Shown: positions 18,944 through 45,339, counted from the first letter of the stretch. The stretch: DNA of 64,000 nt from an uncultured Nitrospiraceae bacterium (GCA_963705105.1 CAVPIW010000006.1:160001-224000); one strand, 5' to 3'. The notes: a model not told the origin generated them from the letters alone. A program made the numbers and translations.

Positions 18944-19163
18944 TCAGTGTGAGTGTGAGTGTCAGTGTGAGTGAAAGGAAGATACAATAAAGACAGTGTG
19001 AGTGCGAGTGTGAGTGTCAGTGAAAGGGAGATACAATAAAGACAGTGTGAGTGTGAGTGTCAGTGTCAGTGAAAGGAAGATACAATAAAGACAGTGTGCG
19101 TGTGAGTGTGAGTGTCAGTGAAAGGAAGATACAATAAAGATAGTGTGAGTGTGAGTGTCAGTG
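18944..19163. repeat. Tandem array, 49-bp period: AGTGT(C/G) hexamers plus GAAAGGAAGATACAATAAAGAC
   Basis: Spacer starts at 18973, 19022, 19071 and 19120. Confidence 0.95.
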
Positions 19164-19349
19164 AAATCGGATAGCATATTAACGCGTTCCTTGGTAGAAC
19201 CACGGTCAGTCTATAGTGCTGTCATTCCGGCTTGTCCGGAATCTTTCTTTTTTCAGACGGATTCCCGACGCCCCCGCATCAAGTGCGGGGTTGCGGGAAT
19301 GACAACATGAGAGGTGGTCCCCACTGACACTGACACTCACACTGACACT
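19161..19349. repeat. Composite repeat (family B core plus inverted hexamer tract), direct-repeat copy 1
   Basis: 19161-19331 versus 34321-34491: 6 mismatches in 171 bp by eye. Confidence 0.95.
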
Positions 19350-19359
19350 ATTATGTTTC

Positions 19360-19389
19360 TTGATACATAAAAAATGGGTATGGTATGAT
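19360..19389 (+). promoter_or_regulatory. Putative sigma70 promoter for the dikinase-like gene
   Basis: TTGATA-N18-TATGAT with extended -10 TG. Confidence 0.45.
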
Positions 19390-19507
19390 GGGGATGCATT
19401 TGGTATACATGAGGTATGTATCAGTGCGGCGGCGGCATGATCCCGGCCATGGAGGGCCGGATATCGGGACGGAAGGACATAATCAACAGGCGGCATGGAA
19501 GGCGGGC

Positions 19508-22069
19508 ATGAGAATCTGGAAGGAGCTGCGGTGGATATTGGGGATGGATGAGGAGGGCCGGGAAAAGGAGAACAAGGAGAGAATGGACCCTTTCAAGAAA
19601 AGGTACGAAGCCTTTCGTGCCCTGCTCATGGGGAACAATGCCGTGCTGGAGACCATGGCGGACATGGAAGAGAAGCTCTCGGGCGAGTATCTCTTCGACA
19701 GGCATTACGTCGAATCGAATGTGCAAAAGGTGAAAGATGCGGTCAGGACCATCATCGAAAGCCTGAATTTCGTAGCAAGGAACAAATACGATGCACTCAA
19801 CGAGCGGTATGCGGGCATCTCGGCCCAGATCGATTACGATCTCGCGAGCAGGCACGAAATACCGGTCAGCGCCCATATCATCACCTTTGACGAGCTGACG
19901 AGAGACTATTCCGACAGGGTGGGGAGCAAGAGCGCCAACCTGGGAGAGATGAAGAAAAGGCTCTTCGTCCCCGTCCCTCAGGGATTCGCCATCAGCGCAT
20001 ACGCCTTCAAGAAATTCATGGACTATAACGGTCTGCCCCAGAGGATCCATGACAGGCTCGACAACCTCGCCATCAACGACATCGAGGCGTTGAACGCGGC
20101 GAGCAGGGAGATCCAGGCCCTCGTCATAGCTGGAGAAGTTCCTCCCGACGTGACTCAGGACATCCTTCAAGCTTTCGAAGCCCTGAAGGAGAGGGTGGGT
20201 CCTGATGTGAAGGTCTCCGTCAGGAGCAGCGCTTACCAGGAAGACGGGGATTTCAGCTTCGCCGGGCAGTACGCGACGTACCTCAATGTCCCGGGGGGAC
20301 AGATACTCCAGAGATACAAGGAAGTCATGGCAAGCCTCTTCAGCCAGCGGGCCCTCTTTTATTTCAAGACCAAGGGCCTTCAGGAGTCCGATATGGTCAT
20401 GCCTGTGGGCGTCCTCTCCATGGTCGATGCAAGGGCCGGCGGCGTCATGTACACGCGGGACCCCAATGAGCCGAAGAAGGACATGATCATGATCAGCGCC
20501 GTGAGGGGCCTGGGCACCGGAGTCGTCGACGGTACCGTCACCCCTGAAACCTACCTCATTGCGCGTGAGGGTGACCTCGACATCCTGGAGAGGAGGCCTT
20601 CGCACCAGGAGAAGATGACCCTCTGCAAGGAGGAGGGCGGTATCGAAGAGGTTCCCCTGGCCGAGTCAGAGAGAGAGGCGTCATTCCTGAACGACAATGA
20701 AGTCAAACTGCTTGCCCGCTATGCCCTCTCCCTGGAGAGGCATTTCAAGAGCCCCCAGGACATCGAATGGGCCATCGACCGGAACGGCCGCGTCTTCATC
20801 CTCCAGGCGAGACCCCTGCGCCTGCTCGTCAAGGAAACGGCGAAGCCCGTCCCGAGACGCGTGGAGGGGTACCGGCTCCTGATCGAAAGGGGCGTCATCG
20901 CCTGCAAGGGCATCGGCTTCGGAAAGGTGCATGTCGTCAGGATGGACGAGGACCTCAAGGACTTCCCCGATGGCGGCGTTCTCGTTGCCAAGCACACATC
21001 GACGAAGTTCGTCACCGTCATGAACAGGGCGAGCGCCATCGTCACCGATGTCGGATCGGCAGCGGGCCATATGGCCTCCCTGTCCCGCGAATTCGACGTA
21101 CCGACGATCCTCGACGCCGAGTCGGCCACGTCGGTCATGCAGAACGGCCAGGACGTGACGGTGGACGCCGTCAATTGCAACATTTATGACGGAAGGGTTG
21201 CGGAGCTCGAAGAGTTCGCCGGGAAGAAGGACGAATCCTTCAAGGAGACGCAGCTCTTCCGGATCCTCCAGAAGGTGCTCAAGAAGGTCACGCCTCTCAA
21301 TCTCATCGATCCCGACAGCGAGGACTTCAAGCCCGAGTCCTGCAAGACCTACCATGATATTACGCGCTTCTGTCATGAGATGGTCGTCCGGGAGCTCTTC
21401 AGCATCGTCGACACCTCGGCTGACGACGTGAGTTCCGTCCGTCTCGTTTCGGGCATGCCCGTCGAGATCTGGCTTCTCGACCTGGGAGGAGGAATTGAGG
21501 GCGCGCCGAAGTATCTCAACCCCGAGCACCTCCGGTCGATACCCTTCAACGCCTTTCTCAAGGGGCTCATGTCCATGAAGTGGCCCGAGGCAAGGGCCTT
21601 CGACGTCAAGGGGTTCCTCGGCGCCGTCGCCCACACCGCCACGACCTCGGAAGAGGAGCTCCAGAAGACGGCCGAAAAGAGCTTTTCCTTCATCACTGAT
21701 ACGTATATGAACTTCGCAATCCGGCTCGGCTACCACCTCTCGACGGTCGAGTCGTTTGTGGGGGACAACATCAACGACAACTACATCCGGTTCCACTTCA
21801 AGGGTGGAGGCGCCGTCGTCGACAGGAGGCTGCGGAGGGTAAGGCTCATAACGGAGATCCTCAAGCAGATGGACTTCAACGTCAAAATCACCGGCGACGT
21901 CATCGACGCGTCCCTTATGAAGTACAAGAGGGAGACGCTGGAGCGGAAGCTCGAGAGCATGGGGAAGATGACCGTCTTCACCAAGCAGCTCGACATGGTG
22001 ATGTACAACGACGCGATTACGGATTCCTACATCAAGGAGTTCTGCAAGAAGCACCTGATCGCCGAGTAA
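19508..22069 (+). CDS. PEP synthase / pyruvate-phosphate-dikinase-like protein (ATP-grasp + phospho-His swivel + non-canonical C-terminus)
   Basis: GSKSANLGEM, VSVRSSA, SFAGQY, PQDIEWA, LQARP; swivel GSAAGHMASLSREFDVP. The C-terminus (YHDITRFCHE...) is unlike the PEP/pyruvate barrel. Start is uncertain (MRIWKE chosen). Confidence 0.88.
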   Translation: MRIWKELRWILGMDEEGREKENKERMDPFKKRYEAFRALLMGNNAVLETMADMEEKLSGEYLFDRHYVESNVQKVKDAVRTIIESLNFVARNKYDALNERYAGISAQIDYDLASRHEIPVSAHIITFDELTRDYSDRVGSKSANLGEMKKRLFVPVPQGFAISAYAFKKFMDYNGLPQRIHDRLDNLAINDIEALNAASREIQALVIAGEVPPDVTQDILQAFEALKERVGPDVKVSVRSSAYQEDGDFSFAGQYATYLNVPGGQILQRYKEVMASLFSQRALFYFKTKGLQESDMVMPVGVLSMVDARAGGVMYTRDPNEPKKDMIMISAVRGLGTGVVDGTVTPETYLIAREGDLDILERRPSHQEKMTLCKEEGGIEEVPLAESEREASFLNDNEVKLLARYALSLERHFKSPQDIEWAIDRNGRVFILQARPLRLLVKETAKPVPRRVEGYRLLIERGVIACKGIGFGKVHVVRMDEDLKDFPDGGVLVAKHTSTKFVTVMNRASAIVTDVGSAAGHMASLSREFDVPTILDAESATSVMQNGQDVTVDAVNCNIYDGRVAELEEFAGKKDESFKETQLFRILQKVLKKVTPLNLIDPDSEDFKPESCKTYHDITRFCHEMVVRELFSIVDTSADDVSSVRLVSGMPVEIWLLDLGGGIEGAPKYLNPEHLRSIPFNAFLKGLMSMKWPEARAFDVKGFLGAVAHTATTSEEELQKTAEKSFSFITDTYMNFAIRLGYHLSTVESFVGDNINDNYIRFHFKGGGAVVDRRLRRVRLITEILKQMDFNVKITGDVIDASLMKYKRETLERKLESMGKMTVFTKQLDMVMYNDAITDSYIKEFCKKHLIAE

Positions 22070-22088
22070 TACGGCATAGACGCCGTAT

Positions 22089-22298
22089 AGATTGTCGCTG
22101 CATGAAAAGGCAGGGCAAATCGCCTCAAAGCCTCGCTGATCGCGAGAATGATCATTTATTATTGGGTTCGCGATTCCATCAGCCTGTCATATGGCGTCAG
22201 CTTAAAATGATCAGCTTGGGAAGGCAAATGTTTCGCAGCACCGATGCTTTTCGGCGCCTTCGCCCCGCCTTGCCTGAGGGCATATGCAGCAATAAGGT
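22089..22298. repeat. Family A element, copy 5 (diverged, unique core)
   Basis: GCTGCATGAAAAGGCAGGGC...CGCCTCAAAGCC...TTTTCGGCGCC..GCCCCGCCTT...TGCAGCAATAAGGT. Confidence 0.8.
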
Positions 22299-22397
22299 AG
22301 ACACGGCAAAGGGTGGTCTGGAGATCAACAAGGTATCTTAGCGGAAAGGCTTTTCACCACATCAGCCTTCCCGCGAGTGTATTTGCGGTCTTGTTCC

Positions 22398-22436
22398 GAC
22401 TACTGACTACTGTCTACTGACTACTGACTACTGTCT
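22398..22436. repeat. Heptamer tandem repeat CTACTG(A/T), about 5 units
   Basis: GACTACTGACTACTGTCTACTGACTACTGACTACTGTCT, immediately after a stop codon. Confidence 0.9.
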
Positions 22437-22438
22437 TA

Positions 22439-22855
22439 TTATCCCTTCCCGAGCTTCTCCCGTAGCATCTTGTTCTCCCTCTCCGTCTGCTGCCATTTGA
22501 GGGCCTTGTCGATGGTGAAGAGGATCTGCTCCTTCCTGAAGGGCTTCGTGATGAAGTCGAAGGCCTTCTTGCCCATCGCCTCCTGGGCGGACTCCAGTGT
22601 GGCGTAGGCGGTCACGATGATGACGGGGATCTCTTCGTTGAATTTCCTGATTTCTTCGAGGAGTTCAAGACCGTCAAGACCGGGCATCTTGAGGTCGGAG
22701 ACGACTAGATCGAAGCCTCCCTGTTTCACGAGTTCGAGGGCCTCCAGAGGGTTGTTCGTAGTGACCACGGAGTACGGGGTCTTGTCCCGTATGATCATGC
22801 TGAGCAGTTTCAGCATGTCCGGCTCGTCATCGACGAGGAGCAGCTTTTCGGCCAT
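22439..22855 (-). CDS. Single-domain response regulator
   Basis: LLLVDDE, VSDLKMPG, VTAYA, FITKPF. Confidence 0.93.
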   Translation of the reverse strand: MAEKLLLVDDEPDMLKLLSMIIRDKTPYSVVTTNNPLEALELVKQGGFDLVVSDLKMPGLDGLELLEEIRKFNEEIPVIIVTAYATLESAQEAMGKKAFDFITKPFRKEQILFTIDKALKWQQTERENKMLREKLGKG

Positions 22856-22864
22856 TGTGCCTCC

Positions 22865-25093
<2,229 letters not shown>

Positions 25094-25151
25094 AGTCTCT
25101 TTACCGGTAGTATAGCAATCTCACTGTCGTATTAGAAAGGCGGGATGAAGA

Positions 25152-25175
25152 GTAGGGGCGGATGCATCCCGCCCC
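25152..25175. repeat. GTAG-prefixed GC hairpin (REP-like or terminator)
   Basis: GTAGGGGCGG-ATGCATC-CCGCCCC. Confidence 0.5.
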
Positions 25176-25186
25176 CCCTTACAGTA

Positions 25187-25642
25187 TCAGATGTTGCAGA
25201 AGTCCAGGCAGCTCTCCTTGACGACGTAAACGCAGCAGGGAGCATGCTTGACCACCTTCGGCGACTCCGCGCCGAGGAGGAAGCGGGCCTGCCCGCTCGT
25301 GCCCCTGGCGCCGATGATGATGAGGTTTATCTTTTCCTTCTCGGCGTAATCGATGATCTCCGCTGAGGGTGACGCGCCCATCTGGATGACGGCCTTGATG
25401 TTCTTCAGTCCCTGGCCCTGGAGATATTCTCTTGCCTTATTGAGAAGGTCCGTGGCCCTCTTCTCGAAACCTTCCCGGATCACCTCCCGGTTACCCGGCG
25501 TGATCTCGAAGTCGAAGTCCGCCACCTGATGAATGACATTCAGGAGATGGATCTCGTTTTCTCTGTCCTTGCAGAAGAACGCCGCCGATTTGAGGCACAT
25601 GTCGGTAAACTTCGATCCGTCGATGGGGACAAGGATTTTCAT
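25187..25642 (-). CDS. Universal stress protein
   Basis: MKILVPIDGS...IIIGARG...LLGAESPKVVKHAPCCV. Confidence 0.92.
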   Translation of the reverse strand: MKILVPIDGSKFTDMCLKSAAFFCKDRENEIHLLNVIHQVADFDFEITPGNREVIREGFEKRATDLLNKAREYLQGQGLKNIKAVIQMGASPSAEIIDYAEKEKINLIIIGARGTSGQARFLLGAESPKVVKHAPCCVYVVKESCLDFCNI

Positions 25643-25650
25643 TTTTCCTC

Positions 25651-26364
25651 CTATACCTCTTTCCTGACCTTAACCTTTTTCGTCGTCAGCCCGACTCCTT
25701 CGAAGAGGTGGTAGAGCGCGTATCCCCACCAGATCGTGTAGAAAACGTAGAAGACGAGGAGAACGGACATCGTGCCGAGCCTGTCGGTGACCTTCTGGGG
25801 CTCAATCTTATAGAAGTTGTAGGCCGGCTCGATGACCTTCGAGGCCACCTCGTTCATCATCTTCGCGCTCGGAAACTCGCTCTTGAGCTGGAGGGCCTTG
25901 TCGATCTTCTTAAGGGAGTTCCACCAGTCCTTCATGACCTGTTTCTCGTCGTACCCGTACGCGGTCTTGACCTTTTCCCCGTCGTTATTGTACATGTTGT
26001 CCGAATCCCTGATGACGACGGAGAGGACCTTTCCGACATCGCCCGATATCTTGAGCGTGCCCTCTTTCTGGTCAGCCGCGGCGCCGGCGGCCGTGAAGAG
26101 ACCGGCGATCCTCTTCGCGTCTTCGGGTTTGTCGATCTTGATCTCGACGTCGAAGGCCTTGCCGACGAACTTCTCGTTGGCTGCGGAGGTTTTGGGGACA
26201 TAATAGGCCGATCCCTTCGAGAGCTTGTTGAATATGTCGTCAGAGAACTCGAGGCCGTTTCTTCCTTCGCCGAAGATAGGCGACATGATGGCGAAGAAAA
26301 GCACAAAGAAGGCGGCGGCCATGACGAGGCCGGTGGTGAAGTGCTTCTTATCTTTTACTAACAT
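25651..26364 (-). CDS. Conserved membrane protein (TSUP accessory, 2 TM + periplasmic domain)
   Basis: N- and C-terminal TMs, FNKLSKGSAYY, EPAYNFYKIEP; 2 nt downstream of the TauE gene. Confidence 0.8.
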   Translation of the reverse strand: MLVKDKKHFTTGLVMAAAFFVLFFAIMSPIFGEGRNGLEFSDDIFNKLSKGSAYYVPKTSAANEKFVGKAFDVEIKIDKPEDAKRIAGLFTAAGAAADQKEGTLKISGDVGKVLSVVIRDSDNMYNNDGEKVKTAYGYDEKQVMKDWWNSLKKIDKALQLKSEFPSAKMMNEVASKVIEPAYNFYKIEPQKVTDRLGTMSVLLVFYVFYTIWWGYALYHLFEGVGLTTKKVKVRKEV

Positions 26365-26366
26365 GG

Positions 26367-28180: not shown

Positions 28181-28270
28181 TCACCGGTCCTTTTTCCTGA
28201 ATTTGTTTCCTATGGCAAGTCCGACGAGGACGGCCATGAGAAGGACGAGTATAATGATCAGATATTCCAT
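28181..28270 (-). CDS. Small single-TM membrane peptide, 29 aa (not in ORF track)
   Basis: MEYLIIILVLLMAVLVGLAIGNKFRKKDR*, RBS GAGGG upstream, hydrophobic helix with a basic tail. Confidence 0.7.
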   Translation of the reverse strand: MEYLIIILVLLMAVLVGLAIGNKFRKKDR

Positions 28271-28360
28271 AGAACCCTCAATTCAGTGTGAGTGTGAGTG
28301 TCAGTGTCAGTGAAAGGAAAACATAGAACCCTCAATTCAGTGTGAGTGTGAGTGTCAGTG
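28268..28360. repeat. Two-unit tandem array (54-bp period) of flank plus AGTGT(C/G) hexamers
   Basis: CATAGAACCCTCAATTCAGTGTGAGTGTGAGTGTCAGTG at 28268 and 28322. Confidence 0.92.
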
Positions 28361-28363
28361 CCA

Positions 28364-28402
28364 AACCCGTAACCCGCAACGCGTAACCCGTAACCCGTAA
28401 CC
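28364..28402. repeat. Heptamer tandem repeat AACCCGT, about 5.5 units
   Basis: AACCCGT AACCCGC AACGCGT AACCCGT AACCCGT AACC, abutting a stop codon. Confidence 0.9.
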
Positions 28403-29190
28403 TATTTCCTCACCGCTATGACGAATCCCTCTCTCATGTTCCTGATGGCGCCGGCGAGGGCCGTCGAATCCGCCTCCCACGATTCCTTCACCGTGATCGA
28501 CCCGAGCCTTCTTCCCTCATCGTCAAGCACATCGAGCTGCATGCCGGGGCTCACGCCGTGGTTCGTCCCCAGGCCGAACTTGATCTCCAGATCACTGTCC
28601 GTCTTCTTGACCATGTAAACTTCCGCCTTCCCGGCGTCAGCCATGAGCCCTTCCTCCTTCCAGGCAAGGTAGAAGACGATGCCGAAGGAAAGGACAAGAA
28701 AGGGGACGCAGGCGACGGCGAACCACCAGGGTGTGATCCCCGTCGTGCGATGGATGAGGGATGTGTAACTCTGTTGCAGGCTTGCACTGTCGCTGAAGAC
28801 GACGATCTTGAAGAAGGAGAACGGCGCCGGCACCTTTCTGTCTTTCGGCATGACCGATATCTTGTACGAGCCCGGCTTCGTCTGTCCGCTTACCGTTAAA
28901 ATGCCGTGCCACATGTTGCCGCCGAACCAGAAGCCCGTGTGGATCGCATCGAAGGTCAGGCTGATATCGTCGGAAGTGCTCGTGTAGGTGAGTTCCCCGA
29001 AGCTTTTCGTCTTTTCGTCCATCTGGCCGTTGATCTCCATCGTGGTGCCGGGCAGGACGTTGAGGACGTTCAGGGGATGCCGGAACTGGGCGATGATGCC
29101 GTCGAGGAGAAAGAACAGGAGGAGCAGGAAGAGGAGGGCGCCGGTTTTTCCGGCTATTTTTCTGAAACGGGTAATCTGAAGAATGTCCAT
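28402..29190 (-). CDS. Conserved hypothetical membrane protein of the TSUP module
   Basis: N-terminal TM, GFWFGGNMWHG, second TM, C-terminal FGLGTNHGV. Confidence 0.8.
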   Translation of the reverse strand: MDILQITRFRKIAGKTGALLFLLLLFFLLDGIIAQFRHPLNVLNVLPGTTMEINGQMDEKTKSFGELTYTSTSDDISLTFDAIHTGFWFGGNMWHGILTVSGQTKPGSYKISVMPKDRKVPAPFSFFKIVVFSDSASLQQSYTSLIHRTTGITPWWFAVACVPFLVLSFGIVFYLAWKEEGLMADAGKAEVYMVKKTDSDLEIKFGLGTNHGVSPGMQLDVLDDEGRRLGSITVKESWEADSTALAGAIRNMREGFVIAVRK

Positions 29191-29208
29191 AGTCTCCCTG
29201 GAGCCTGA

Positions 29209-29237
29209 GGAAGCCTCCGGCAGGACCGGAGGCTTCC
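29209..29237. other. Perfect 12-bp intergenic hairpin (mRNA stability or partial termination)
   Basis: GGAAGCCTCCGG-CAGGA-CCGGAGGCTTCC with no T-tract. Confidence 0.7.
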
Positions 29238-29247
29238 CCGTTCATTC

Positions 29248-29838: not shown

Positions 29839-29895
29839 TCTCATTTCCTCCTTCAACATGATCGTGGTCATCTGTGTGCCTCTCCGACCCTCTTC

Positions 29896-34089: not shown

Positions 34090-34100
34090 GGTCGTTCATT

Positions 34101-34323
34101 ATACAATAAAGACAGTGTGAGTGTGAGTGTCAGTGTCAGTGAAAGAAAGACAGGAAGAACAGTGTGAGTGTGAGTGTCAGTGTCAGGAAGACAGGAGGAA
34201 CAGTGTGAGTGTGAGTGACAGTGTGAGTGAAGGGAAGACAGGAAGAACAGTGTGAGTGTGAGTGTCAGTGTCAGTGAAAGGAAGACAGGAAGAACAGTGT
34301 GAGTGTGAGTGTCAGTGTCAGTG
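34101..34323. repeat. Tandem array of AGTGT(C/G) hexamers with GAAAGGAAGACAGGAAGAAC spacers
   Basis: Spacers at about 34141, 34186, 34229 and 34276; the leading flank ATACAATAAAGAC equals the spacer of the 18.9-kb array. Confidence 0.95.
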
Positions 34324-34525
34324 AAATCGGATAGCAAATTAACGCGTTCCCTGGCAGAGCCACGGTCAGTTTATAGTGCTGTCATTCCGGCTTGTCCGGA
34401 ATCTTTCTTTTTTCAGACGGATTCCCGACGCCCCCGCATCAAGTGCGGGGTTGCGGCAATGACAACATGAGAGGTGGTCCCCACTGACACTCGCACTCAG
34501 ACTCACACTGACACTGACACTCACA
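34321..34525. repeat. Composite repeat, direct-repeat copy 2
   Basis: Near-identical to 19161-19331; ends in an inverted GACACT/CACACT tract. Confidence 0.95.
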
Positions 34526-34567
34526 TTGATACCGTGGAGACTGGTATAATACTAAGTGAGGTAATAT

Positions 34568-37087: not shown

Positions 37088-37096
37088 CGCAAACCA

Positions 37097-37849: not shown

Positions 37850-38001
37850 GGGACACCTCCGGAGGATGAATTTAGATACAGAAGGTACTATACCGATTGA
37901 GAAAAGTCTTGGCAATTGTTGCGATAGGGGCCGGTTTGTTCCGGATTTGTATGAGCCTGCGTCGAAATCATTTATAATACTGATACGGTTGGTGAGGTTG
38001 C

Positions 38002-38184
38002 GTGAAATTCAGCGAACTCGTAAGATTGTTGGAAGAAAACGGCTTTAAGATCCTGAAAGAGAAAGGATCAATTCGCTATTATATGAAACCAGGCTGGGAC
38101 AGGCTCATTCGGGTTGACTTCCATGGCTCGAAGGAGGTGCCTACAGGCACGTGTCATGCCATTCTGAAAGCTGCCGGACTGTAA
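38002..38184 (+). CDS. hicA: HicA family toxin
   Basis: 60 aa: LLEENGF...KGS...VDFHGSKEVPTGTCHAILKAAGL. Confidence 0.85.
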   Translation: MKFSELVRLLEENGFKILKEKGSIRYYMKPGWDRLIRVDFHGSKEVPTGTCHAILKAAGL

Positions 38185-38215
38185 AGAAGAAGCATAATCG
38201 TAACGGAGATGATAA

Positions 38216-38461
38216 ATGATCGAGCTGCCATACTCCTTGGTTATTGAAGCAACGGTGGAACCGGATTATTTCGGTTTCTATTCCCCCGAACTTGAAGGTT
38301 TCTCAGGCATCGGGCACTCCATTGAAGACTGCCTGTATAAGGCCAAATGGGGAATGGCCGAACACGTAGACCTTTTGAAAGACCAGGGCCTTCCTGTGCC
38401 ACCCGTAAATAATAACCCGAAAATAATCATTCAGAACGAACAGACGGCAAAGGCTGCATGA
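38216..38461 (+). CDS. hicB: HicB family antitoxin (short, no DNA-binding domain)
   Basis: YSLVIE...YSPELEGFSGIGHSIEDCL...LKDQGLPVP; follows hicA. Confidence 0.85.
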   Translation: MIELPYSLVIEATVEPDYFGFYSPELEGFSGIGHSIEDCLYKAKWGMAEHVDLLKDQGLPVPPVNNNPKIIIQNEQTAKAA

Positions 38462-38616
38462 GCCACGGCGCTCGTGGCAGGGGCATATGTGGAAGAGACG
38501 AGGTTCCGGATCAATTCAGCGGATCAGCCCGAATGGGCATGATACTCGTTGACTCATGCGAAACTTTGACTCTGTGATGACTTCACACTGCTTGATTGCT
38601 TGAGAATTTCTTCACA

Positions 38617-38701
38617 GCCGGAGTGGCGGAACTGGCAGACGCAAGGGACTTAAAATCCCTCGCTCCTTGCGGGCATACGGGTTCGACCCCCGTCTCCGGC
38701 A
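38617..38701 (+). tRNA. tRNA-Leu (anticodon TAA), CCA not encoded
   Basis: GCCGGAG acceptor stem, anticodon arm AGGGA-CTTAAAA-TCCCT, long variable arm, GGTTCGAC T-loop. Confidence 0.96.
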
Positions 38702-38708
38702 TTATATT

Positions 38709-38957
38709 TCAATGGATATGGTCCCTCTTCATCGTGAGGGTGAGTGCCGGCAGGCATGAAAAAAAGCACACTATTCTGGTAATGCCGGGATATCCGTCAA
38801 AGCCCGCGTCGAAACTCATGATCGAATGAATGCCCTGTCGCTCCATGACGGCCAGGTGGAGCGCGTCCCTGGCAGAGATGTGCTGAGAGCCTGCCAAAAT
38901 ATCTTTCGCGCGGTTGACATCCGTCAGTTCGACGGCAAAGACATTGTCGACATTTAC
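38709..38957 (-). pseudogene. VapC/PIN toxin C-terminal fragment
   Basis: VDNVFAVELTDVNRAKDILAG...SARDALHLAVMERQGIHSIMSFDAGFDGYPGITRI, with no PIN N-terminus in frame. Confidence 0.8.
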
Positions 38958-39103
38958 GGTATCCCCGGGATAAAACCAGATACCCTCCTCTCACCATTCC
39001 CCATTGACACCACATCTGTATTTCAGCAGTCTCTCTCATGGAAGAAGCCGTCTTCAGGCGCCTATGCCAGAGGCGGCATGTGCCGTATGAAGAAGGCTGA
39101 TAA

Positions 39104-39155
39104 GTCAGGGCAGGCTTGTTTCACCAATCAGAGCAATTCGCAAGTCTGACCCTGA
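39104..39155. repeat. Imperfect inverted repeat (REP-like)
   Basis: GTCAGGGCAGGCTTG ... CAAGTCTGACCCTGA. Confidence 0.55.
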
Positions 39156-39276
39156 GACCCTGACGAATGCCGTTTTTCATCGGCTGACAGGCAAAGCAAA
39201 TTAATGGAGCGCTGTCCCACTGAAATTAATTATGGTTTACTTTAAGTTCGATATAAAGTATTATATATTTATCTAT

Positions 39277-40497
39277 ATGGACGGGAAGATCTACAAACGG
39301 GATATAGTTGCCGAGATAGACAGATATCTCACTACTGATGATGTCATTGTCCTGCACGGGGCACGGCAGGTGGGAAAGACGTCGCTGATGCGCTATCTCG
39401 AGGCTGAACTGAAAGCCAAAGGGGAAAAGACCCTCTTCATCGACCTCGAAGACTCCAGGTATGTGAAGGTACTCGACGCGGGGACCGGGGAGTTTCTGAA
39501 GCTGCTGGAAGAGGAGGGCGCGAGGACTGTCCATCCTGAGAGGAAGGTTTATGTCTTCATAGATGAGATACAGTATCTGTCCGACCCTTCGTCGTTTCTC
39601 AAGCTGATTGCGGACCATCAAAAGTCAATCAAGCTGATCGTATCGGGCTCGTCGAGCTTTGCCATCAAGTCCCGCTTCAGGGATTCCCTTGTCGGCAGAA
39701 CAGTCAATTTCGACATATTCAACCTTTCCTTCAGGGAGTTCCTGCTTTTCAAGGGCATAACGTTCCGGGAAGGAGCGGAAGACACGGCAAGGAAAACGGA
39801 GGAGTTGAAGCGCCTTTTCAGGCAGTACCTGCTCTATGGCGGCTATCCGAAGATCGTCCTGACACCCGAGGTGCAGATGAAGGAGAAATACCTGCAGCAG
39901 ATCATCGACACCTATGTGAAGAGGGACATCAGGGACCTGGCGAGCGTGAAGGACATAGAGAAATTCAATAAGCTCCTCGAAGCGCTCGCGGCCCAGAGCA
40001 GCCAGATGCTGAATGTCGCCGAACTGGCGGGAACGACCCGCATCGCGAAGCAGACAGTCGAGAAGTACCTGTTCATCATGGAAAACACCTATATCCTGAA
40101 GCTGGTCAGGCCTTTCAGCGGCAATATACGGTCGGAACTGTTCAAGATGCCCAAGATCTTCTTCTATGATACCGGCATCATGCAGATGCTCTGGCTGAAA
40201 GGCCTGCAGAAAGAGATCATCGGCAACGTTTTTGAGACCGCTGTCTTCAGCGAGCTGGTGAAAAAATACGGAAAGGAAGCGGTCTATTACTGGAGGACGA
40301 AAGACAAAAAGGAAATAGATTTCGTCCTGAGGATAAAGAGAGACGTCCTGCCCGTTGAGGCGAAACTTAACTTCGGTCAGTTCAAGACGACGGCCATCAA
40401 CTATTTCAGGGAGAGATACGGTATAGACCGGTACGTTGTCGCCGGCCTGGAAGGGGAGCGGAAGAACGAATTCCAAGTGTATCCGTGGCGCCTCTGA
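39277..40497 (+). CDS. AAA+ ATPase (AAA_14) with DUF4143 / C-terminal nuclease-like motif
   Basis: GARQVGKT, FIDEIQ, SGSSS, YGGYP, PKIFFYDTG, EIDFV...VEAK. Confidence 0.92.
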   Translation: MDGKIYKRDIVAEIDRYLTTDDVIVLHGARQVGKTSLMRYLEAELKAKGEKTLFIDLEDSRYVKVLDAGTGEFLKLLEEEGARTVHPERKVYVFIDEIQYLSDPSSFLKLIADHQKSIKLIVSGSSSFAIKSRFRDSLVGRTVNFDIFNLSFREFLLFKGITFREGAEDTARKTEELKRLFRQYLLYGGYPKIVLTPEVQMKEKYLQQIIDTYVKRDIRDLASVKDIEKFNKLLEALAAQSSQMLNVAELAGTTRIAKQTVEKYLFIMENTYILKLVRPFSGNIRSELFKMPKIFFYDTGIMQMLWLKGLQKEIIGNVFETAVFSELVKKYGKEAVYYWRTKDKKEIDFVLRIKRDVLPVEAKLNFGQFKTTAINYFRERYGIDRYVVAGLEGERKNEFQVYPWRL

Positions 40498-40697
40498 AAG
40501 GCCTGTTCCATCACGTTTTCCAATCATGTGCCGGTGCAGCTGATTCAACAGGCTGGTCGCCAGCATGACCATGTTAATGTTGCGATGCTCTGTCCACGTC
40601 TCCGATTCTCTGTTCCTGCGCAACTGCGCCATCCTGTATGCGGGAGGGGGAGCGAGGCCATCTCTCCGGGGGAAATGAGGCCGTTCCCGTCGCCGTC

Positions 40698-41153
40698 TCA
40701 TCGCGGCTCGGCAACGGTTGTCGGCGTGTCAACGACGCCGGCATAAAAGACGAGAATCTCAGCAGGATCATTCCCCTCGTTGATGCCGTAGTGCAACGTG
40801 TCGACCACCTCGATGATGGGATCTCCCGCCTTGAGATGCAGCTTCTTCCCTTCCGTCGTCACGACCGTGAGCCGCCCGCTTATCAGGACGCCGGCGTTTA
40901 TCACGGGGTGACGGTGCGCGTTGAGCAGGGCTCCCGCAGGTATGGTAATCCTCAGAATCGTGATCTCCGGCTGACCCTTTGGATAGGCAGGCAGCAGCGC
41001 TCCGTCCCAGCTTCGGGTCGTTTTCATGAGCTGTTCCCTGACGACCGGCGACCCCTCTCCCGCTTGCGTTCCGCTCCGAAACTGAGCACAGCCGGACTGC
41101 AGGAGCAGAATGACGGAAAGGGCCGCGAGGATTCGTATGGTTTGTTGCTTCAC
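40698..41153 (-). CDS. Cupin-domain lipoprotein
   Basis: Lipobox-like LQSGC; SWDGALLPAYP; HRHPVINAG...EVVDTLHYG. Confidence 0.88.
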   Translation of the reverse strand: MKQQTIRILAALSVILLLQSGCAQFRSGTQAGEGSPVVREQLMKTTRSWDGALLPAYPKGQPEITILRITIPAGALLNAHRHPVINAGVLISGRLTVVTTEGKKLHLKAGDPIIEVVDTLHYGINEGNDPAEILVFYAGVVDTPTTVAEPR

Positions 41154-41488
41154 CGGCAGTCGCGCATCGGCTCACTGTCGATCTCGTGCACGCGGCCGTT
41201 GCGCATGTGTACTTTGGCGCAACTGCCGACCGTCAGGGGTCCCTCGGACAGATCGAATTGCGTCCCGGCGTCGGTCTTGAAGGTACGCCCGCCGATCACC
41301 CATTCACCATGCAGTGCCTTCTCCGGTCGTGATTGGACAATGCCGTAGAACTCCGACCGACTGTCGCCGTCGCCGCCGCGCTTGGCGAGCGCCATATCAG
41401 GTGCCACAATCAGCACCAGGGCAATGGTGAATACAAGTGCGCTGATAATGATGGTAGAGACTTTTACCTGATTTGTTGAAAGAAGCAT
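41150..41488 (-). CDS. Small secreted protein (DUF5666-like)
   Basis: Signal peptide; FYGIVQSRP..GEWVIGG...VGSCAKV...EIDSE. Confidence 0.7.
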   Translation of the reverse strand: MLLSTNQVKVSTIIISALVFTIALVLIVAPDMALAKRGGDGDSRSEFYGIVQSRPEKALHGEWVIGGRTFKTDAGTQFDLSEGPLTVGSCAKVHMRNGRVHEIDSEPMRDCR

Positions 41489-41542
41489 TTTCGATCCTCC
41501 TTCCTGAGTTCATTTGTAAAGCCACGGTCAGCATAAGATTCT

Positions 41543-41614
41543 GTCATTATGTATAGCCCGGAATCCTTCTCATTTTCAGAAGGATTGCCGACGCGCTCCG
41601 CTTGCGGCAATGAC
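41543..41614. repeat. Family B hairpin element (diverged)
   Basis: GTCATT...CCGGAATC...TTTTCAGA.GGATTGCCGACG...TTGCGGCAATGAC, preceded by CCACGGTCAG as in the 19/34-kb copies. Confidence 0.75.
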
Positions 41615-41813
41615 GGCTTTACGAGTGTTTGATTGCCGGGCTAACATTTCATTTTAGCTAATCATATCCAAAGAAGGACGGCCTGTCAACGCTGAAGACC
41701 ATGGATGGCCTCGCCTTTTCGCCCCTCGAAGGGCCGGTCGTTGACCTTCAATCCTGATCCCGGGGTCTGTGATGAAACGATTCACCCTGCCTTTTCATAC
41801 GGCAGGAAGGTAT

Positions 41814-42014
41814 GTCGTAACGTTGCATACGATCCTTGGAAAAGCGGGGTGTATGCGCCGAAAACCTTGATGCGGCGACACCTGTATCAAAACGAAAGAC
41901 GAGGCATACGCCGATGTCAGGAGAATTGGACATCTTTTCCGACACTGACACTGACACTGACACTGACACTGTTTTCAGAGTGCTTCGCCCCGCTTTTTTG
42001 TGCAACTACAAGGT
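41814..42014. repeat. Family A element, copy 6 (type I, reverse orientation)
   Basis: Reverse complement of copies 3 and 7, with a GACACT tract. Confidence 0.93.
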
Positions 42015-42057
42015 ATACTAACATTATAAAGACCTTGTTCACAGGAGATGAGTTTTA

Positions 42058-44208
42058 GTGGAAGCGAAACCGGGAAAGGAAGTATTCGGTCTCCGGCGCA
42101 TCGGTTCGGTGCCCGCCAAGGTCGCGCTTGTTTATGTGCTCGTCGGGTGCCTCTGGATCCTCCTTTCCGACCGCGCCATATCGGCTCTCTTTCAGGATCC
42201 CCTCACGATCGCCCGGATGCAAACCATCAAGGGATGGGGCTTTGTCCTGGTCACGGGCCTCATACTCTATATTCTCCTCCGGAACATCTTCTCCAAGCTC
42301 GGCCATTCCGAGGATGCCCTCCGCTACGCCGAGAACAAGTTCCGCACTCTCGTGGAACAGGCGCTCGTCGGCATCTACATCATCCGGGAGGGCAGGTTCA
42401 TTTACGTCAATCCGGGGTTCCAGGAGATTTTCGGATACACGATGGATGAAATCCTCGCTATGCCGTCAATCCTGGAGCTTGTCGCCGAGAGTGACCGGCA
42501 TATCGTCGCCGATAATGTGCGCATGCGTCTTGCGGGCGCCGTTCAGAGCCTTCATTACTCGTTCACGGGGAGAAAAAAGGACGGCGCCCGCATCGACGTC
42601 GAAGTGCACGGTTCCGCCATCGATTTCGAGGGGAAAAAGGCCATTATCGGAGTCCTCCTGGACATAACGGAGCGCAGGAGGGCGGAAGCGGCCCTGAGGG
42701 ACAGCGAAGAACGCACGCGGCTGCTCATCGACAGCGCCGAGGACATCATCGTCATGCATGACACTGAAGGGACCTACCTCTATTACAACGGTTCCGCCCG
42801 GTACGGCCTGACGGCTGAAGAGGTCGTGGGTAAGAAACCCCGCGATATCTTCGATGAAGCCGTGGCGGAGAAGATCATGGACCAGATCAGGACGGTTGCG
42901 GCAAGCGGCGAAGGCCTTTCCGACGAAAGGGAGGTCCTCTGGCGGGGCGAGCATATGTGGTTTCTCGATCAGGTTTCGCCGGTAAAGGACGCACAGGGAA
43001 AGGTCACGGCAGTTGTCAGGATTTCCCGCAACATCACCGACCGGAAGAAGGCCGAAAGGACGATCGGGGAGAGCGAGGAACGGTACAGGGTCATCGCGGA
43101 GACGGCGTCGGATGCCATTATTACCGTCGATGAGGACAGCAGGGTCGTCTTTGCGAACCGTGCGGTGCTGGACATTTTCGGGTATGAGCCGGAAGATCTG
43201 AAGGGGAAGTTGATGACGGTCATCGTTCCTCCGCGTTTCCGTGACGGTCACATGCAGGGCATGAGGAGGTATCTCGACAGCGGCGTGAAGAAGGCGGGCT
43301 GGAGAGCGAGGGAGCTTCCGGGACTTCACAGGGACGGCTACGAGATACCGCTCGAAATCTCGTATGGTGAATTCGAAAAGGACGGCAGAAGGTACTTCAC
43401 CGGCGTGATCCGTGACATCACGGAGCGAAAGGTCGCTGAAAAAGAGAAGCAGTACAGCGACATGCTCGAAAGATTCAGTCAGCAGATGCAGTCGCTCATC
43501 GCCGAGAGGACGATCAGCCTCCTTGCGCTCAGGCTGGCGGACAGGGTGCGGAACCCTGCCGCCGTCATCGGATGGACGGGAAAGCGGCTGCTGAAACAGG
43601 CCGAGGTCCCCCAGGCATGGAAAGAGCATATGAGCACGATTATCGAGGAGGTGGAGAACCTGGAGGGAATCGTCAAGGAATTCCAGTCCCTGCTGACGCA
43701 CAAGGATCCCGTTTACGCCTACAACGATCTCAACGGGGTTGTGAGAGGAGTCCTGAGCGTTATCGGAAAGGAGGCGGACCGCAGGCATATCAGGCTTGAG
43801 GAGAGCCTCTTTGCGGGGGCTCTCACGATGAACATGCAGAAAGAAACCATGCGCATGGCGATCTTCATCATCATGAGAAACGCCGTCGAGTCAAGCCCTG
43901 AGGGCGGCGCCGTCACTGTCATGACGTCGGAGGAAGACGACAAAGTCATGCTCTCCGTCGCCGACTCGGGGGCGGGCATTCCGAAACGCATGCAGGAGCG
44001 CCTGTTCGATCCCTTTTACAGCGCCAGGATGGAGAGGTACGGCATCGGGTGGCCGCTCGTAAAACAGATCGTGTACGAGCATATGGGGACCGTGGAGATC
44101 GAAAGTGAAAAGGGTGCCGGAAGCCTGTTCACGGTCATTTTTCCAAAAAGGTGGATCGACAGCACCGTGGGAGTCCCGGGTGGAGAGGGCGGCGTTAAAG
44201 GAATATGA
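42058..44208 (+). CDS. Membrane multi-PAS histidine-kinase-like protein lacking the phospho-His
   Basis: Two TMs and three PAS domains; H-box reads LADRVRNP; NAVE, DSGAGI, FDPF and GIG are present. Confidence 0.85.
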   Translation: MEAKPGKEVFGLRRIGSVPAKVALVYVLVGCLWILLSDRAISALFQDPLTIARMQTIKGWGFVLVTGLILYILLRNIFSKLGHSEDALRYAENKFRTLVEQALVGIYIIREGRFIYVNPGFQEIFGYTMDEILAMPSILELVAESDRHIVADNVRMRLAGAVQSLHYSFTGRKKDGARIDVEVHGSAIDFEGKKAIIGVLLDITERRRAEAALRDSEERTRLLIDSAEDIIVMHDTEGTYLYYNGSARYGLTAEEVVGKKPRDIFDEAVAEKIMDQIRTVAASGEGLSDEREVLWRGEHMWFLDQVSPVKDAQGKVTAVVRISRNITDRKKAERTIGESEERYRVIAETASDAIITVDEDSRVVFANRAVLDIFGYEPEDLKGKLMTVIVPPRFRDGHMQGMRRYLDSGVKKAGWRARELPGLHRDGYEIPLEISYGEFEKDGRRYFTGVIRDITERKVAEKEKQYSDMLERFSQQMQSLIAERTISLLALRLADRVRNPAAVIGWTGKRLLKQAEVPQAWKEHMSTIIEEVENLEGIVKEFQSLLTHKDPVYAYNDLNGVVRGVLSVIGKEADRRHIRLEESLFAGALTMNMQKETMRMAIFIIMRNAVESSPEGGAVTVMTSEEDDKVMLSVADSGAGIPKRMQERLFDPFYSARMERYGIGWPLVKQIVYEHMGTVEIESEKGAGSLFTVIFPKRWIDSTVGVPGGEGGVKGI

Positions 44209-44854
44209 GGACGCTCATGGTGGCGATGGACCAGATCACGTCCGTCGGGATCTGGAGGTCGCAGCTCGAATCAAAGAGCAGTTCAGCACGGGCCCCGAAT
44301 TCTTCGTCGGACCGCCAGACGGTGATGACGACGGGCACCCTCGGGAAGGGCAGCAGCCTGACGGCGGCGTCTCCCTGATCAAAGGCCTCACCGCCGAATT
44401 CCGCACCCCGCGCAAAGAACCCGTCAATGTCCTTGTCGTACTTTTCGGCCAGGAGATCGAGAGGCAGAATGTGCGTTCCCCTGAAGAAAATCTGGCCTCC
44501 CTTGATATGGATCGGGTTGACGAGCCGTCCTGAAAACCCGATGTCCCTTGCGCTGACGAGATACCAGACGAGGGAAAGTCCGTAAAAGTACTCCGGGTTG
44601 TTCAGCAGGACGGCGCCCTGCGCCGAGGCCGTGGCTATCCTCTTGTCACGCGGAAAGACCCTGAAGTCGGCGCCGAAGGACGGGACCGTGTAGAAGCCTT
44701 CATCGGCATCGTACGAGATGGAGGCCCTCCGGCAGACGTCGGCCGGGTCGAGCTGAGCCAGCTCCTGCCAGGCCTTCTCCTCGCCCGAGTAGGTCTTGAT
44801 CGTGTCCAGTCCCGCTCCCGCGACGTACTCGTATCGTCTCGTGTCTTCAGACAT
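44195..44854 (-). CDS. DUF3786-family protein
   Basis: GGQIFFRG, PFPRVPV..W..DEEF.ARAELLFD. Confidence 0.85.
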   Translation of the reverse strand: MSEDTRRYEYVAGAGLDTIKTYSGEEKAWQELAQLDPADVCRRASISYDADEGFYTVPSFGADFRVFPRDKRIATASAQGAVLLNNPEYFYGLSLVWYLVSARDIGFSGRLVNPIHIKGGQIFFRGTHILPLDLLAEKYDKDIDGFFARGAEFGGEAFDQGDAAVRLLPFPRVPVVITVWRSDEEFGARAELLFDSSCDLQIPTDVIWSIATMSVLIFL

Positions 44855-44865
44855 ATGAATAGTAT

Positions 44866-45076
44866 ACCTTATCGTTGCAATACACTTCCGGGAAAGGCGG
44901 GGCGAAGCACTCTGAAAACAGTGTCAGTGTGAGTGTCAGTGTCAGTGTCGGAAAAGATGTCCAATTCTCCTGACATCGGCTTATGCCTCGTCCTTCGTTT
45001 TGATACAGGTGTCGCCGCAGCAAGGTTTTCGGCGCATACACCCCGCCTTACCGAATGGCGTATGCAACGATAAGAT
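44866..45076. repeat. Family A element, copy 7 (type I, two right-type ends)
   Basis: ACCTTATCGTTGCAATACACTTCCGGGAAAGGCGGGG...TGCAACGATAAGAT. Confidence 0.93.
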
Positions 45077-45088
45077 ATATCCTGAAAC

Positions 45089-45318
45089 AGTGTGAGTGTG
45101 AGTAACACAGACACTGTTGTGCCCGTTGTGCCGTTTTTCTTTCACTGTCACTGACACTGACACAGACACTGTTGTGCCTGTTGTGCCGTTTTTCTCACAC
45201 TGACACTGACACAGACACTGTTGTGCCTGTTGTGCTGTTTTTCTTTCACTGTCACTGACACTGACACACACACTGTTGTGCCGTTTTTCTCTCACTGTCA
45301 CTGACACTCACACTCACA
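45089..45318. repeat. Tandem array of GACACT/CACACT hexamers with TGTTGTGCC spacers
   Basis: About four units of CACTGTTGTGCC(..GTTGTGCC)GTTTTTCT(T/C)TCACTGTCACTGACAC. Confidence 0.9.
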
Positions 45319-45339
45319 TTGTTGTGCTATCATATTGAT

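Follow-up and report, generated by a model that had tools for sequence, protein, structure and literature searches.

The runs of the hexamer AGTGTS in the genome studied here probably represent the terminal arms of a small, transposase-less four-helix-bundle cassette, and the arrays formed by these runs would be its local duplications. Within the window, i.e. the whole 64-kb stretch of DNA that was analysed (64,000 nt), a 16-nt tract pattern gave 43 matches versus 0 in each of 30 shuffles, which confirms, with their positions, the arrays reported in a preliminary description of this DNA. All arrays in the window are intergenic, and Rfam identified two tRNAs on this stretch and nothing at the arrays. 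The adjoining genes are of mixed functions. The features are:

18946..19163 (+), 18.9-kb array of five hexamer tracts (18946-18973, 18995-19022, 19044-19071, 19093-19120, 19142-19163) with a 49-nt unit and 21-nt spacers
18974..18984 (+), linker AAAGGAAGATA in the 18.9-kb array, repeated at 19072 and 19121
19164..19321 (strand not assigned), inner segment, common to 34324-34481
19322..19349 (-), opposing (convergent) hexamer arm, upstream of a PPDK-family gene
28181..28270 (-), ORF of a 29-aa hydrophobic peptide; its RBS and ATG are the duplicated flank
28268..28284 (+), native 17-nt flank of the 28.3-kb array
28285..28360 (+), 28.3-kb two-unit array, 54-nt unit: tract 28285-28312, linker 28313-28321, exact flank copy 28322-28338, tract 28339-28360
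28364..28402 (-), opposing arm at 28.3 kb with a different unit (heptamer)
34098..34113 (-), promoter-like TATAAT site (ends at 34098) and native flank 34101-34113
34114..34323 (+), 34.1-kb array of five tracts (34114-34141, 34161-34184, 34202-34229, 34249-34276, 34296-34323) in 41-47-nt units
34324..34481 (strand not assigned), inner segment, copy of 19164-19321
34482..34527 (-), opposing hexamer arm at the 34.1-kb locus
44866..45075 (+), family A MITE-like element with one tract (44920-44949)
45089..45103 (+), short opposing arm, with which the 45.1-45.3-kb array ends in a fold-back
45104..45320 (-), 45.1-45.3-kb array of four full tracts (45291-45320, 45247-45274, 45196-45219, 45143-45170) and a partial fifth
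45321..45327 (-), native 7-nt flank, 13 nt upstream of the UbiA-family start at 45340

The preliminary description had proposed that the spacers of four arrays repeat the adjacent flank. This was found at 28.3 kb, where the 17 nt recur at 28322 and contain, in antisense, the RBS and ATG of the 29-aa ORF, and at 45.1-45.3 kb, where the spacers consist of a purine linker and a copy of just 7 nt of the flank beside the ubiA-like gene, together with nested 9-nt duplications. The 18.9-kb spacers do match the flank at 34101 beside the TATAAT site, but that locus is 15 kb away and the suffix score against their own flank is 3. Here, each unit is composed of the arm, the cassette leader and a flank copied from the 34.1-kb locus, with native flank 34101-34113 as the source of the spacers; the final three letters of the linker overlap the start of the flank copy. 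The 34.1-kb spacers failed as flank copies (suffix score 2) and contain a nested 8-9-nt duplication of the flank end plus AG. The inner segment shared by both loci (19164-19321) is a REP-like palindrome flanked by both halves of an IS3-type end, which stand in permuted order, and the heptamer arm at 28.3 kb begins at the stop codon of ORF 28402-29190.

Genome-wide, we counted 432 AGTGTS tracts at 372 loci, 132 of them non-MITE and 240 MITE. Multi-unit arrays were present at 27 loci and strongly concentrated outside the MITEs (24/132 vs 3/240, p=4e-9). The array unit measured 41-57 nt in 51 of 60 cases, and spacers below 14 nt were almost absent. After trimming, 423 of the 432 tracts were at most 28 nt long; five AGTG cores were found at 65 of the 132 non-MITE loci and more than five at 17, while the commonest 28-mer accounted for 10 of 130. 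The AGTG cores differed at 2/376 sites compared with 30/597 in the spacers, a conservation that is partly built into the tract finder. The C/G choice does vary from unit to unit, as had been described, but no more than the spacers drift (12/148 sites, p=0.16). The common units contain no G-runs. Among non-genic long-period repeats, 20 of 47 fall on the tract motif, which covers <1% of non-genic DNA.

The tract pattern matched 467 times in this genome, and none of 250 further genomes of the phylum exceeded 5 matches. Most of the 132 non-MITE modules of this genome (G000) are solo, and 35 have an opposing tract ahead of the next gene, whereas 11 of 15 loci in G030 and G163 are convergent pairs. 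A GTDB scan with a 26-nt pattern yielded seven loci, six planctomycete-type and one from Rikenellaceae, three of them with convergent tracts. No four-helix-bundle gene was found within 1 kb of these seven loci, nor near eight tract loci in six genomes of the phylum.

We compared the 3′ end of the spacers with the array's own 5′ flank. The match score was at least 7 in 13 of 27 arrays and at least 8 in 10, while permuted flanks averaged 0.5-1.4 and never exceeded 4 (2000 permutations); the flank-copy rule thus holds for these 13 arrays and not for the remaining 14. The proposed insertion with target-site duplication was not supported. A flank copy within 60 nt downstream of solo tracts was seen in 1 of 108 cases (control 0.55), and the result stayed negative when the distance was widened to 150 or 400 nt and when 3-5 terminal nt were trimmed off; at 150 nt, three of the four hits (4/108 vs control 1.6) are further tract-bearing duplications. 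In 26 of 27 arrays no flank match of at least 7 nt follows the last tract within 60 nt, so that the arrays end on a tract.

Identical tracts were far more frequent within arrays (24/50 pairs) than between arrays (12/940), and all five tracts of the array at C5:404302 are the same. Tracts were therefore copied from one another inside an array, and the units are not fresh insertions. A telomerase-like or DRT-type synthesis of each unit from a fixed RNA template was rejected, as tract variants are array-specific and copied with the unit; a first, solo tract may nevertheless have been synthesised de novo. Both native flanks account for the spacers in 6 of the 27 arrays, the 5′ flank only in 6, the 3′ flank only in 5 and neither in 10. 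The six arrays with both flanks are fully explained by them, their junctions being offset by -7 to +3 nt. A further array is a linker-free duplication. Junction microhomology is short or absent, and three arrays contain nested 8-9-nt restarts of flank end plus AG. For the 16 arrays that match neither flank or the 5′ flank only, we have to assume a later inner-side replacement or block transfer, which could be demonstrated only for 18.9 kb and C10:229021.

Judged by their sequences, the arrays appear to have arisen by head-to-tail duplication of a 41-57-nt segment spanning the arm, with one apparent breakpoint 7-21 nt outside the arm and the other 0-17 nt inside. The earlier view that they are more than plain hexamer slippage is upheld, and the order of flank, tract, linker and flank copy can be reduced to tandem duplication. 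Plain duplication does not account for the scarcity of duplicated MITE-borne tracts.

The linker itself is evidently the Shine-Dalgarno leader of the cassette's four-helix-bundle gene: AAAGGAAGATA opens three of the four spacers of the 18.9-kb array and precedes the start codon of the four-helix-bundle gene in two other genomes (L140, L169). A match of at least 5 nt to the Shine-Dalgarno consensus follows 69 of the 132 non-MITE tracts versus 7-21 in three control windows. It had been taken for a constant purine linker; it is indeed common to unrelated loci, but the strict form GAAAG(G/A)AA opens just 14 of 60 spacers (9 of 27 arrays), with a looser AAGG-type core in 19 of 27 arrays. The exact linker pattern was absent from 30 relatives.

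An intact cassette lies between convergent arrays of this genome at C9:319901-320281, between an ABC permease gene and an ATPase gene. Its gene scores above the curated cut-offs of PF05635 (125 bits, cut-off 33.8) and TIGR02436 (120 bits, cut-off 24), and the protein is related to the five-chain structure 2GSC (E=5e-17), described in the available part of its source as a homopentamer (PMC4990558). By analogy, the C9 protein may form a homopentameric ring. In the fold of the intact cassette RNA, arm pairs with arm (z -5.7, 20 shuffles). No transposase or RT is located inside the cassette. The sole RVT_1 gene found is Drt4-like and lies on another contig than the C9 gene, 28 kb from the nearest tract; four Y1 transposases were matched, and the three whose flanks were inspected have other ends and no tract. 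The similarity to the Avd profile NF033474 is weak (37.8 bits, cut-off 80). Our literature search returned no description of such a gene-plus-arms cassette.

The set of homologous loci numbers 41 after the removal of duplicates, of L033 for its short flank and of L042, which is no homologue; the protein tree has 84 rows after removal of identical proteins and those under 85 aa. Of the 16 closest homologues, 10 are flanked by AGTGWC arms on both sides, compared with 1 of 31 homologues at greater distance. Six AGTGWC-armed proteins group in the tree (95/71), in a clade that is not starred at an SH-aLRT of 71. Of 8 genomes that carry this gene clade, 6 had at least five tract matches, versus 9 of 152 without it; two carriers show no tract matches, and 7 of the 9 tract-rich non-carriers come from one family. 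A gene tracking the tracts, as had been expected for the arrays, does exist, but it is the four-helix-bundle gene and not an RT, primase or nuclease gene. The same protein clade occupies different gene junctions in different genomes, and arms of several blocks separated by purine spacers are known from other organisms as well (L023, L136, L169). Together, the comparison of these loci points clearly to the cassette layout and to a tie between arm sequence and one protein clade. In one relative, L169, the cassette is internally deleted, which indicates that gene-less copies can arise in this manner. Pure internal deletion does not account for the mostly solo modules here versus the convergent pairs in G030 and G163.

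Family A elements had been suggested as template or donor. As 354 of 539 family A left ends carry no tract and none of six related cassettes from other organisms sits inside its frame, family A is not needed as donor; 30 of its end pairs, listed as places where an autonomous partner might lie, are 400-3000 nt apart. In the cassette reading, the element at 44866-45075 would be a passive carrier of its tract.

Relative to host genes, whose boundaries were taken from gene calls made for this analysis, the tract 5′ end was at most 10 nt from a stop codon at 44 of the 132 non-MITE loci (25 at 3-6 nt; control 2.4, maximum 7). On the outer side, a stop was found within 30 nt at 53 loci and a start within 30 nt at 12 and at 31-100 nt at 23; on the inner side, 2 loci were within 30 nt of a gene boundary. 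Arrays occur alike on the coding strand after stops and on the non-coding strand before starts. The near-stop position is not unique to the tracts, because MITE copies are also close to stop codons.

In the cassette layout, a short gap of a few nt, in many cases RAC, separates the host stop codon from about five AGTG-NN units; then come the Shine-Dalgarno leader, the four-helix-bundle gene (TIGR02436, S23p/Avd-like), the inverted arm and the next host gene. The lineage presumably built up ~130 gene-less arm-plus-leader modules at gene boundaries, and a MITE may have acquired one or few tracts and carried them to ~240 more sites. The duplicated unit was then apparently amplified whole to 2-9 copies, and blocks of units sometimes moved between loci, as from 34.1 kb to 18.9 kb. 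Tentatively, a pentameric protein may bind the five AGTG cores on single-stranded nucleic acid; such putative binding would keep the cores unchanged and limit the run to about 28 nt, and segments centred on the arm would be looped out when the DNA is replicated or repaired, creating duplication hot spots. We consider it doubtful, though conceivable, that a transposase-free mobile system has an Avd-like pentamer as its sole dedicated factor. Bound to five AGTG cores, the pentamer would recruit a host polymerase, which would use a donor copy to write arm and leader, and at times the entire gene, into DNA 3-6 nt past a stop codon; no target duplication would result, and upstream re-priming would yield the first flank-containing duplication. 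Each protein clade would then specify its own repeat, and this would explain the intergenic repeats of 6-9 nt that have long been known from many bacterial phyla.

One-step templated capture, directed by the four-helix-bundle protein with a host polymerase, is likewise an unlikely account of the arrays themselves. From a break or nick a few nt after the stop, the 3′ end would invade a donor arm, copy tract and leader and drop off; it would then either anneal downstream, leaving a solo module and no target duplication, or anneal 7-21 nt upstream, leaving a flank copy, and re-prime, so that the first duplication is part of the insertion and later units follow by ordinary unit copying. The clustering near stops, the prevalence of solo arm-plus-leader modules, the confinement of arrays to primary sites with few in MITE copies, the near absence of short spacers and the nested restarts in three arrays all agree with this. 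Set against it are the lack of a linked catalytic partner in the RT and Y1 searches, the arrays on both strands, the likewise stop-proximal MITE copies and the ability of post-insertion duplication to yield all present-day arrays. The originally proposed iterative, telomere-like insertion of tract and linker with target-site duplication, RNA-templated or target-primed from family A, is very improbable. Flank copies are significant, the linker core is shared, the arms of both sides are directed inward as is expected of added telomeric repeats, and the protein resembles, below the cut-off, the RT partner Avd. However, the solo-site test largely refutes it (107 of 108 without target duplication), arrays terminate on tracts, units share array-specific variants, the linker is an ordinary and variable leader, family A is mostly tract-free and absent from relatives' cassettes, the RT is unlinked and the polarity of the cassette mRNA would be wrong for templating tract, then leader.

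That the tracts are selected host regulatory sites (RNA-binding or RNase III stems), with arrays as neutral slippage and no link to mobility, appears improbable to us. Their tight placement after stops and upstream of starts, the conserved cores and the arm-to-arm RNA fold would fit, and a regulatory role is proposed for similar heptamers in the available part of one article (PMC4679880); the great excess over all 250 phylum genomes, the different junctions of one protein clade and the functionally mixed window neighbours argue against it. An assembly artefact inflating single modules into arrays is hardly credible: Logan contigs of the best-matching run do break at arrays, as do the contigs of all four runs covered, but units differ from each other in tract and spacer letters and similar multi-block arms occur in independent assemblies. 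The RNA run contributed small shares only. We therefore retain the cassette with local duplications as the preferred explanation.

This reading brings together two old puzzles: what the S23p protein does, and the intergenic repeats of 6-9 nt, one of which has expanded ~hundredfold in this genome relative to its relatives. It offers concrete handles: a named protein, a repeat specific to its clade, a ceiling of five cores that matches a five-subunit ring and a sharp position 3-6 nt after stops. The duplication hot spot often copies promoter or RBS sequence. As the S23p/PF05635 family is very common, the question is raised whether it drives its own spread.

In microhomology-mediated tandem duplication and VNTRs, whole units are copied head to tail, variants are array-specific and blocks are transferred between homologous loci. 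The arrays described here share all of this and differ in the one favoured motif, the narrow unit length and the little junction homology. With MITEs and other internal-deletion derivatives of transposons, the system has inverted ends, gene-less derivatives (L169) and high copy number in common, whereas the cassette lacks transposase and target duplication and its arms are mostly solo here. Short intergenic repeats are known from Xanthomonas and Nostoc (GGGAATC), for which the available part of the source reports that no mobile-element association was found (Rehm 2015, PMC4692102), and from Beggiatoaceae (TAACTGA; MacGregor 2015, PMC4679880). As far as these excerpts go, the 6-9-nt repeats likewise lie on the coding strand just after a stop and on the non-coding strand before a start and are near 28 nt long (four heptamers there, five AGTG cores here); a linked gene, a leader or a higher-order duplication is not described in them, and the AGTGTS units lack the G-runs of the G-quadruplex-forming Rehm class. 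The DGR protein Avd, which according to the part of the preprint available binds RNA and is required for RT activity (bioRxiv 10.1101/2023.10.23.563531), acts in the bRT-Avd complex and has a pentameric fold related to the C9 protein, but the C9 score is below the Avd cut-off and there is no adjacent RT; nor did a template/variable repeat pair or A-specific mutagenesis come to notice. The ORF-bearing 23S rRNA intervening sequences (Coxiella, Leptospira, Xanthomonas Xcc0516 = PDB 2GSC) encode proteins of the same family, S23p/PF05635/TIGR02436. In contrast to these, the C9 cassette lies between protein-coding genes and not in rRNA, and has tandem-hexamer arms, hundreds of gene-less arm-plus-leader modules and higher-order arrays. 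Both share the sporadic distribution and a gene within complementary, stem-forming ends, which in Coxiella are described, in the section available, as a 28-bp stem (PMC4990558).

All four hexamer arrays that had been reported for the window, at 18.9 kb, 28.3 kb, 34.1 kb and 45.1-45.3 kb, were recovered, and a 16-nt pattern for the tract (a run of AGTGTS hexamers with AGTG cores) occurred 43 times in the window vs 0 in 30 shuffles. The array feature is real. The proposed grammar, in which the spacers between tracts repeat a flank, held to a different extent in each array. At 28.3 kb, the 17-nt flank at 28268, the antisense of the RBS and ATG of a 29-aa ORF, indeed has an exact second copy at 28322. 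The ORF itself (window 28181-28270, minus strand) encodes a hydrophobic peptide, has an RBS and was missed by the 80-aa ORF cut-off. A flank copy is also present at 45.1-45.3 kb, but is just 7 nt long. The spacers at 18.9 kb end in a copy of a flank that belongs to the 34.1-kb locus, at a distance of 15 kb, but do not copy their own flank, and at 34.1 kb no flank is copied by the spacers.

Genome-wide, we counted 432 tracts, distributed over 372 loci, and 27 of these loci are multi-unit arrays. The expectation that each spacer equals the linker plus its own flank held for part of them: the spacer 3' end matched the array's own 5' flank in 13 of the 27 arrays at a score of at least 7 and in 10 at a score of at least 8, but not in the rest. 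The spacer 5' end matched the sequence 3' of the last tract in 9/27 (score of at least 8), and 2000 permutations of the flanks served as control (means 0.5-1.4, maximum 4). Both native flanks account for six arrays, in which the offset at the junction ranges from -7 to +3 nt, the 5' flank alone for six, including one linker-free duplication, the 3' flank alone for five and neither flank for ten. The linker, a purine string described as constant, opens only 14/60 spacers in its strict form, whereas a looser AAGG core is enriched, following 67 of 132 tracts outside MITE-like elements vs 15 and 19 in control windows. Tract expansion is lineage-specific: the pattern has 467 matches in this genome, and none of 250 further genomes from the phylum has more than 5. 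Four planctomycete-titled records (L017, L019, L020, L021) have AGTGTG runs at gene junctions, with GAAAG or GAAA after the run; three show the runs as convergent pairs, of which two lie in operons of ribosomal proteins.

Genes of the PF05635/TIGR02436 family are often bordered by short repeats, and for this reason the family was searched for in the window's genome.

C9:319901-320281: PF05635/TIGR02436 four-helix-bundle gene between ABC permease and ATPase genes (profile match, contig C9)

This gene is bordered on one side by a six-unit array on the same strand and, downstream, by an array in inverted orientation. Of the 41 distinct loci of homologues, 20 have a 5-mer that is common at least three times to the upstream flank and the reverse-complemented downstream flank, compared with 6/41 in direct orientation and 1.9 (maximum 7) for mismatched flanks. 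AGTGWC arms, i.e. repeat tracts at the cassette ends, flank the gene on both sides in 10 of its 16 nearest homologues (53-64% identity); the remaining six comprise one with mainly one-sided arms, one with an AGTGTA variant and four whose arms consist of other units. Only 1/31 more distant loci carries AGTGWC-type arms, and six AGTGWC-armed proteins cluster in an 84-row tree (support 95/71, not starred) within a 100/98 clade. The arm sequence tracks the protein. Across 160 genomes of the order, at least five tract matches occur in 6/8 genomes with the gene clade vs 9/152 without it, counts in which related genomes are not independent; seven of these nine tract-rich genomes belong to one family, and two gene carriers have zero matches. 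The preliminary description had advised a search for reverse transcriptase, primase-polymerase or nuclease genes that track the arrays: a tracking gene exists, but it encodes a four-helix-bundle protein. The C9 protein has a relative in 2GSC, a structure of five chains, and its match to the Avd protein of diversity-generating retroelements (DGRs) is weak and below the cut-off. A second, divergent four-helix-bundle gene (locus L012 3430-3867; G000:C6:828540-828851) has other hexamer-type arms and abuts a partial family A copy. Further cassettes (L024-L030, L108, L111, L112, L044, L070) presumably lie between cas genes or beside CRISPR-like repeats.

The linker is the Shine-Dalgarno leader of the four-helix-bundle gene. 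In intact cassettes, the ribosome-binding site of the gene is located 3' of the left arm, and in loci L140 and L169 the arm is followed by AAAGGAAGATA and a GTG start. At 18.9 kb, three of the four spacers begin with these 11 letters, of which the last three are shared with the beginning of the flank copy. Non-MITE tracts are followed in 69/132 cases by a match of at least 5 nt to the Shine-Dalgarno consensus vs 15, 21 and 7 in controls, and the complementary 16S end is present in the genome. L169 (G474:C134) is an internally deleted cassette, as both arms and the leader are still present while the gene is reduced to 17 N-terminal codons and its C-terminal end.

The 18.9-kb and 34.1-kb loci have in common an inner segment of 156 nt as well as an opposing arm and are therefore two copies of one composite element. 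The inner segment (window 19164-19322 and 34324-34482) has the inner half of an IS3-type terminal repeat at its start and the outer half at its end; in an IS at C6:830-831 kb (L012; G000:C6:830047 and 831315-831330) the two halves are contiguous. It looks like a circularly permuted IS3-type fragment that may have been captured between two arms in a single event, with one later copying. At window 28339-28402, a hexamer arm stands opposite a heptamer arm that begins at the neighbouring stop codon, a chimeric cassette with two arm types. Nested 8-9-nt duplications of the flank end plus AG directly precede tracts at window 34234-34295 and 45116-45237 and at G000:C9:320327. They were found at 6/432 tract junctions, five of the six in arrays, and resemble what aborted restarts at the 5' edge of the tract might leave.

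How did the arrays form? Insertion with target duplication, as previously suggested, predicts a flank copy after solo (single-tract) loci and at array ends. A copy within 60 nt was detected at 1/108 solo loci (control 0.55) and at the end of 1/27 arrays, that one running on into a partial unit. As solo tracts and array ends do not have the expected copies, this model is rejected. Identical 28-mer tract pairs make up 24/50 pairs inside arrays vs 12/940 between arrays. The C/G choice, described as varying from unit to unit, drifts no faster than the spacers (12/148 variable hexamer positions vs 30/597, p=0.16), and AGTG cores are changed at just 2/376 sites, a figure partly due to the tract finder. 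Tracts are thus inherited within arrays and drift like spacers, indicating that units were copied whole. The array grammar is put down to tandem duplication of cassette arm plus leader, and arrays would arise as flank, arm and leader are duplicated together. Blocks were also transferred between loci (34.1 kb to 18.9 kb; C10:204750 to 229021), and purine-spaced multi-block arms exist elsewhere (L023, L136, L169).

The MITE-like family A, with 539 left ends and modular interiors genome-wide, had been put forward as template or donor.

Window 2080, 9444, 15918, 22097, 41811-42017, 44866-45075, 55631, 58553 and 62551: family A MITE-like copies

The tract is present on 185/539 left ends and the six related cassettes all lie outside the family A frame, so that a carrier is the best reading of family A. 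As some copies carry the tract and AAAGGA, it could be a local reservoir of tracts. A link to a reverse transcriptase was not borne out: the sole RVT_1 match lies 28 kb from the closest tract. It is Drt4-like (246 bits vs a cut-off of 450; L014 4942-6480, G000:C14), adjoins a large methyltransferase-like gene and IS elements and is unlinked to tracts.

Several observations go beyond plain slippage. The tract lies inside 20/47 non-genic tandem repeats of period 25-120, while all tracts total 9,880 nt of ~1.19 Mb non-genic DNA. The gene calls that define this set extend over just 76% of the genome, so that some of the 27 repeats that lack a tract probably lie in coding sequence; three of the 27 are CRISPR-like. 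At G000:C6:516593-523598 there are three CRISPR-like arrays whose period is ~70 nt. Unit length is 41-57 nt in 51/60 units, which are not independent within arrays. Arrays occur at 24/132 non-MITE vs 3/240 MITE loci (p=4e-9), a contrast to which age could contribute. The start of a non-MITE tract is at most 10 nt from a stop codon in 44/132 cases; six of the 44 have negative distances, and 25 lie 3-6 nt away (control 2.4, maximum 7). Five cores are the mode, 423/432 trimmed tracts span at most 28 nt, and 35/132 loci have an opposing tract ahead of the next gene vs 11/15 in two other genomes (G030 and G163). Taken together, repeat concentration, unit range, MITE contrast, stop position, five-core mode and the few opposing tracts make a protein-directed step possible, and we infer that a putatively pentameric four-helix-bundle protein might bind the five AGTG cores. 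Other 7-, 8- and 9-nt repeat arms (window 22398-22433 and 18232-18256; G000:C4:38857, C6:485618, C7:245511) are included in three 83-97-nt higher-order duplications.

Among known systems, the tracts follow the same position rule as the intergenic heptamers of Rehm 2015 (PMC4692102), for which the portions consulted describe a preference for four units and no mobile-element link. A regulatory role for repeats is proposed in MacGregor 2015 (PMC4679880), where a term search did not find the four-helix-bundle protein. None of the papers listed in the literature searches linked such a protein to repeat arms. An S23p-type protein is placed in cas loci and rRNA insertions (PMC3936711, bioRxiv 2024.02.27.582315), the former being consistent with cassettes among apparent cas genes, and Avd is described as a pentameric, RNA-binding partner of the RT (bioRxiv 2023.10.23.563531). 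An S23p-bearing 23S rRNA intervening sequence (IVS) is reported to have a 28-bp terminal stem and to be cleaved by RNase III (PMC4990558). The cassette resembles an IVS in being stem-bounded and differs in lying outside rRNA. By membership tests it belongs to neither the IVS, DGR nor target-site-duplicating classes, and it acts like an IVS-type stem-bounded element.
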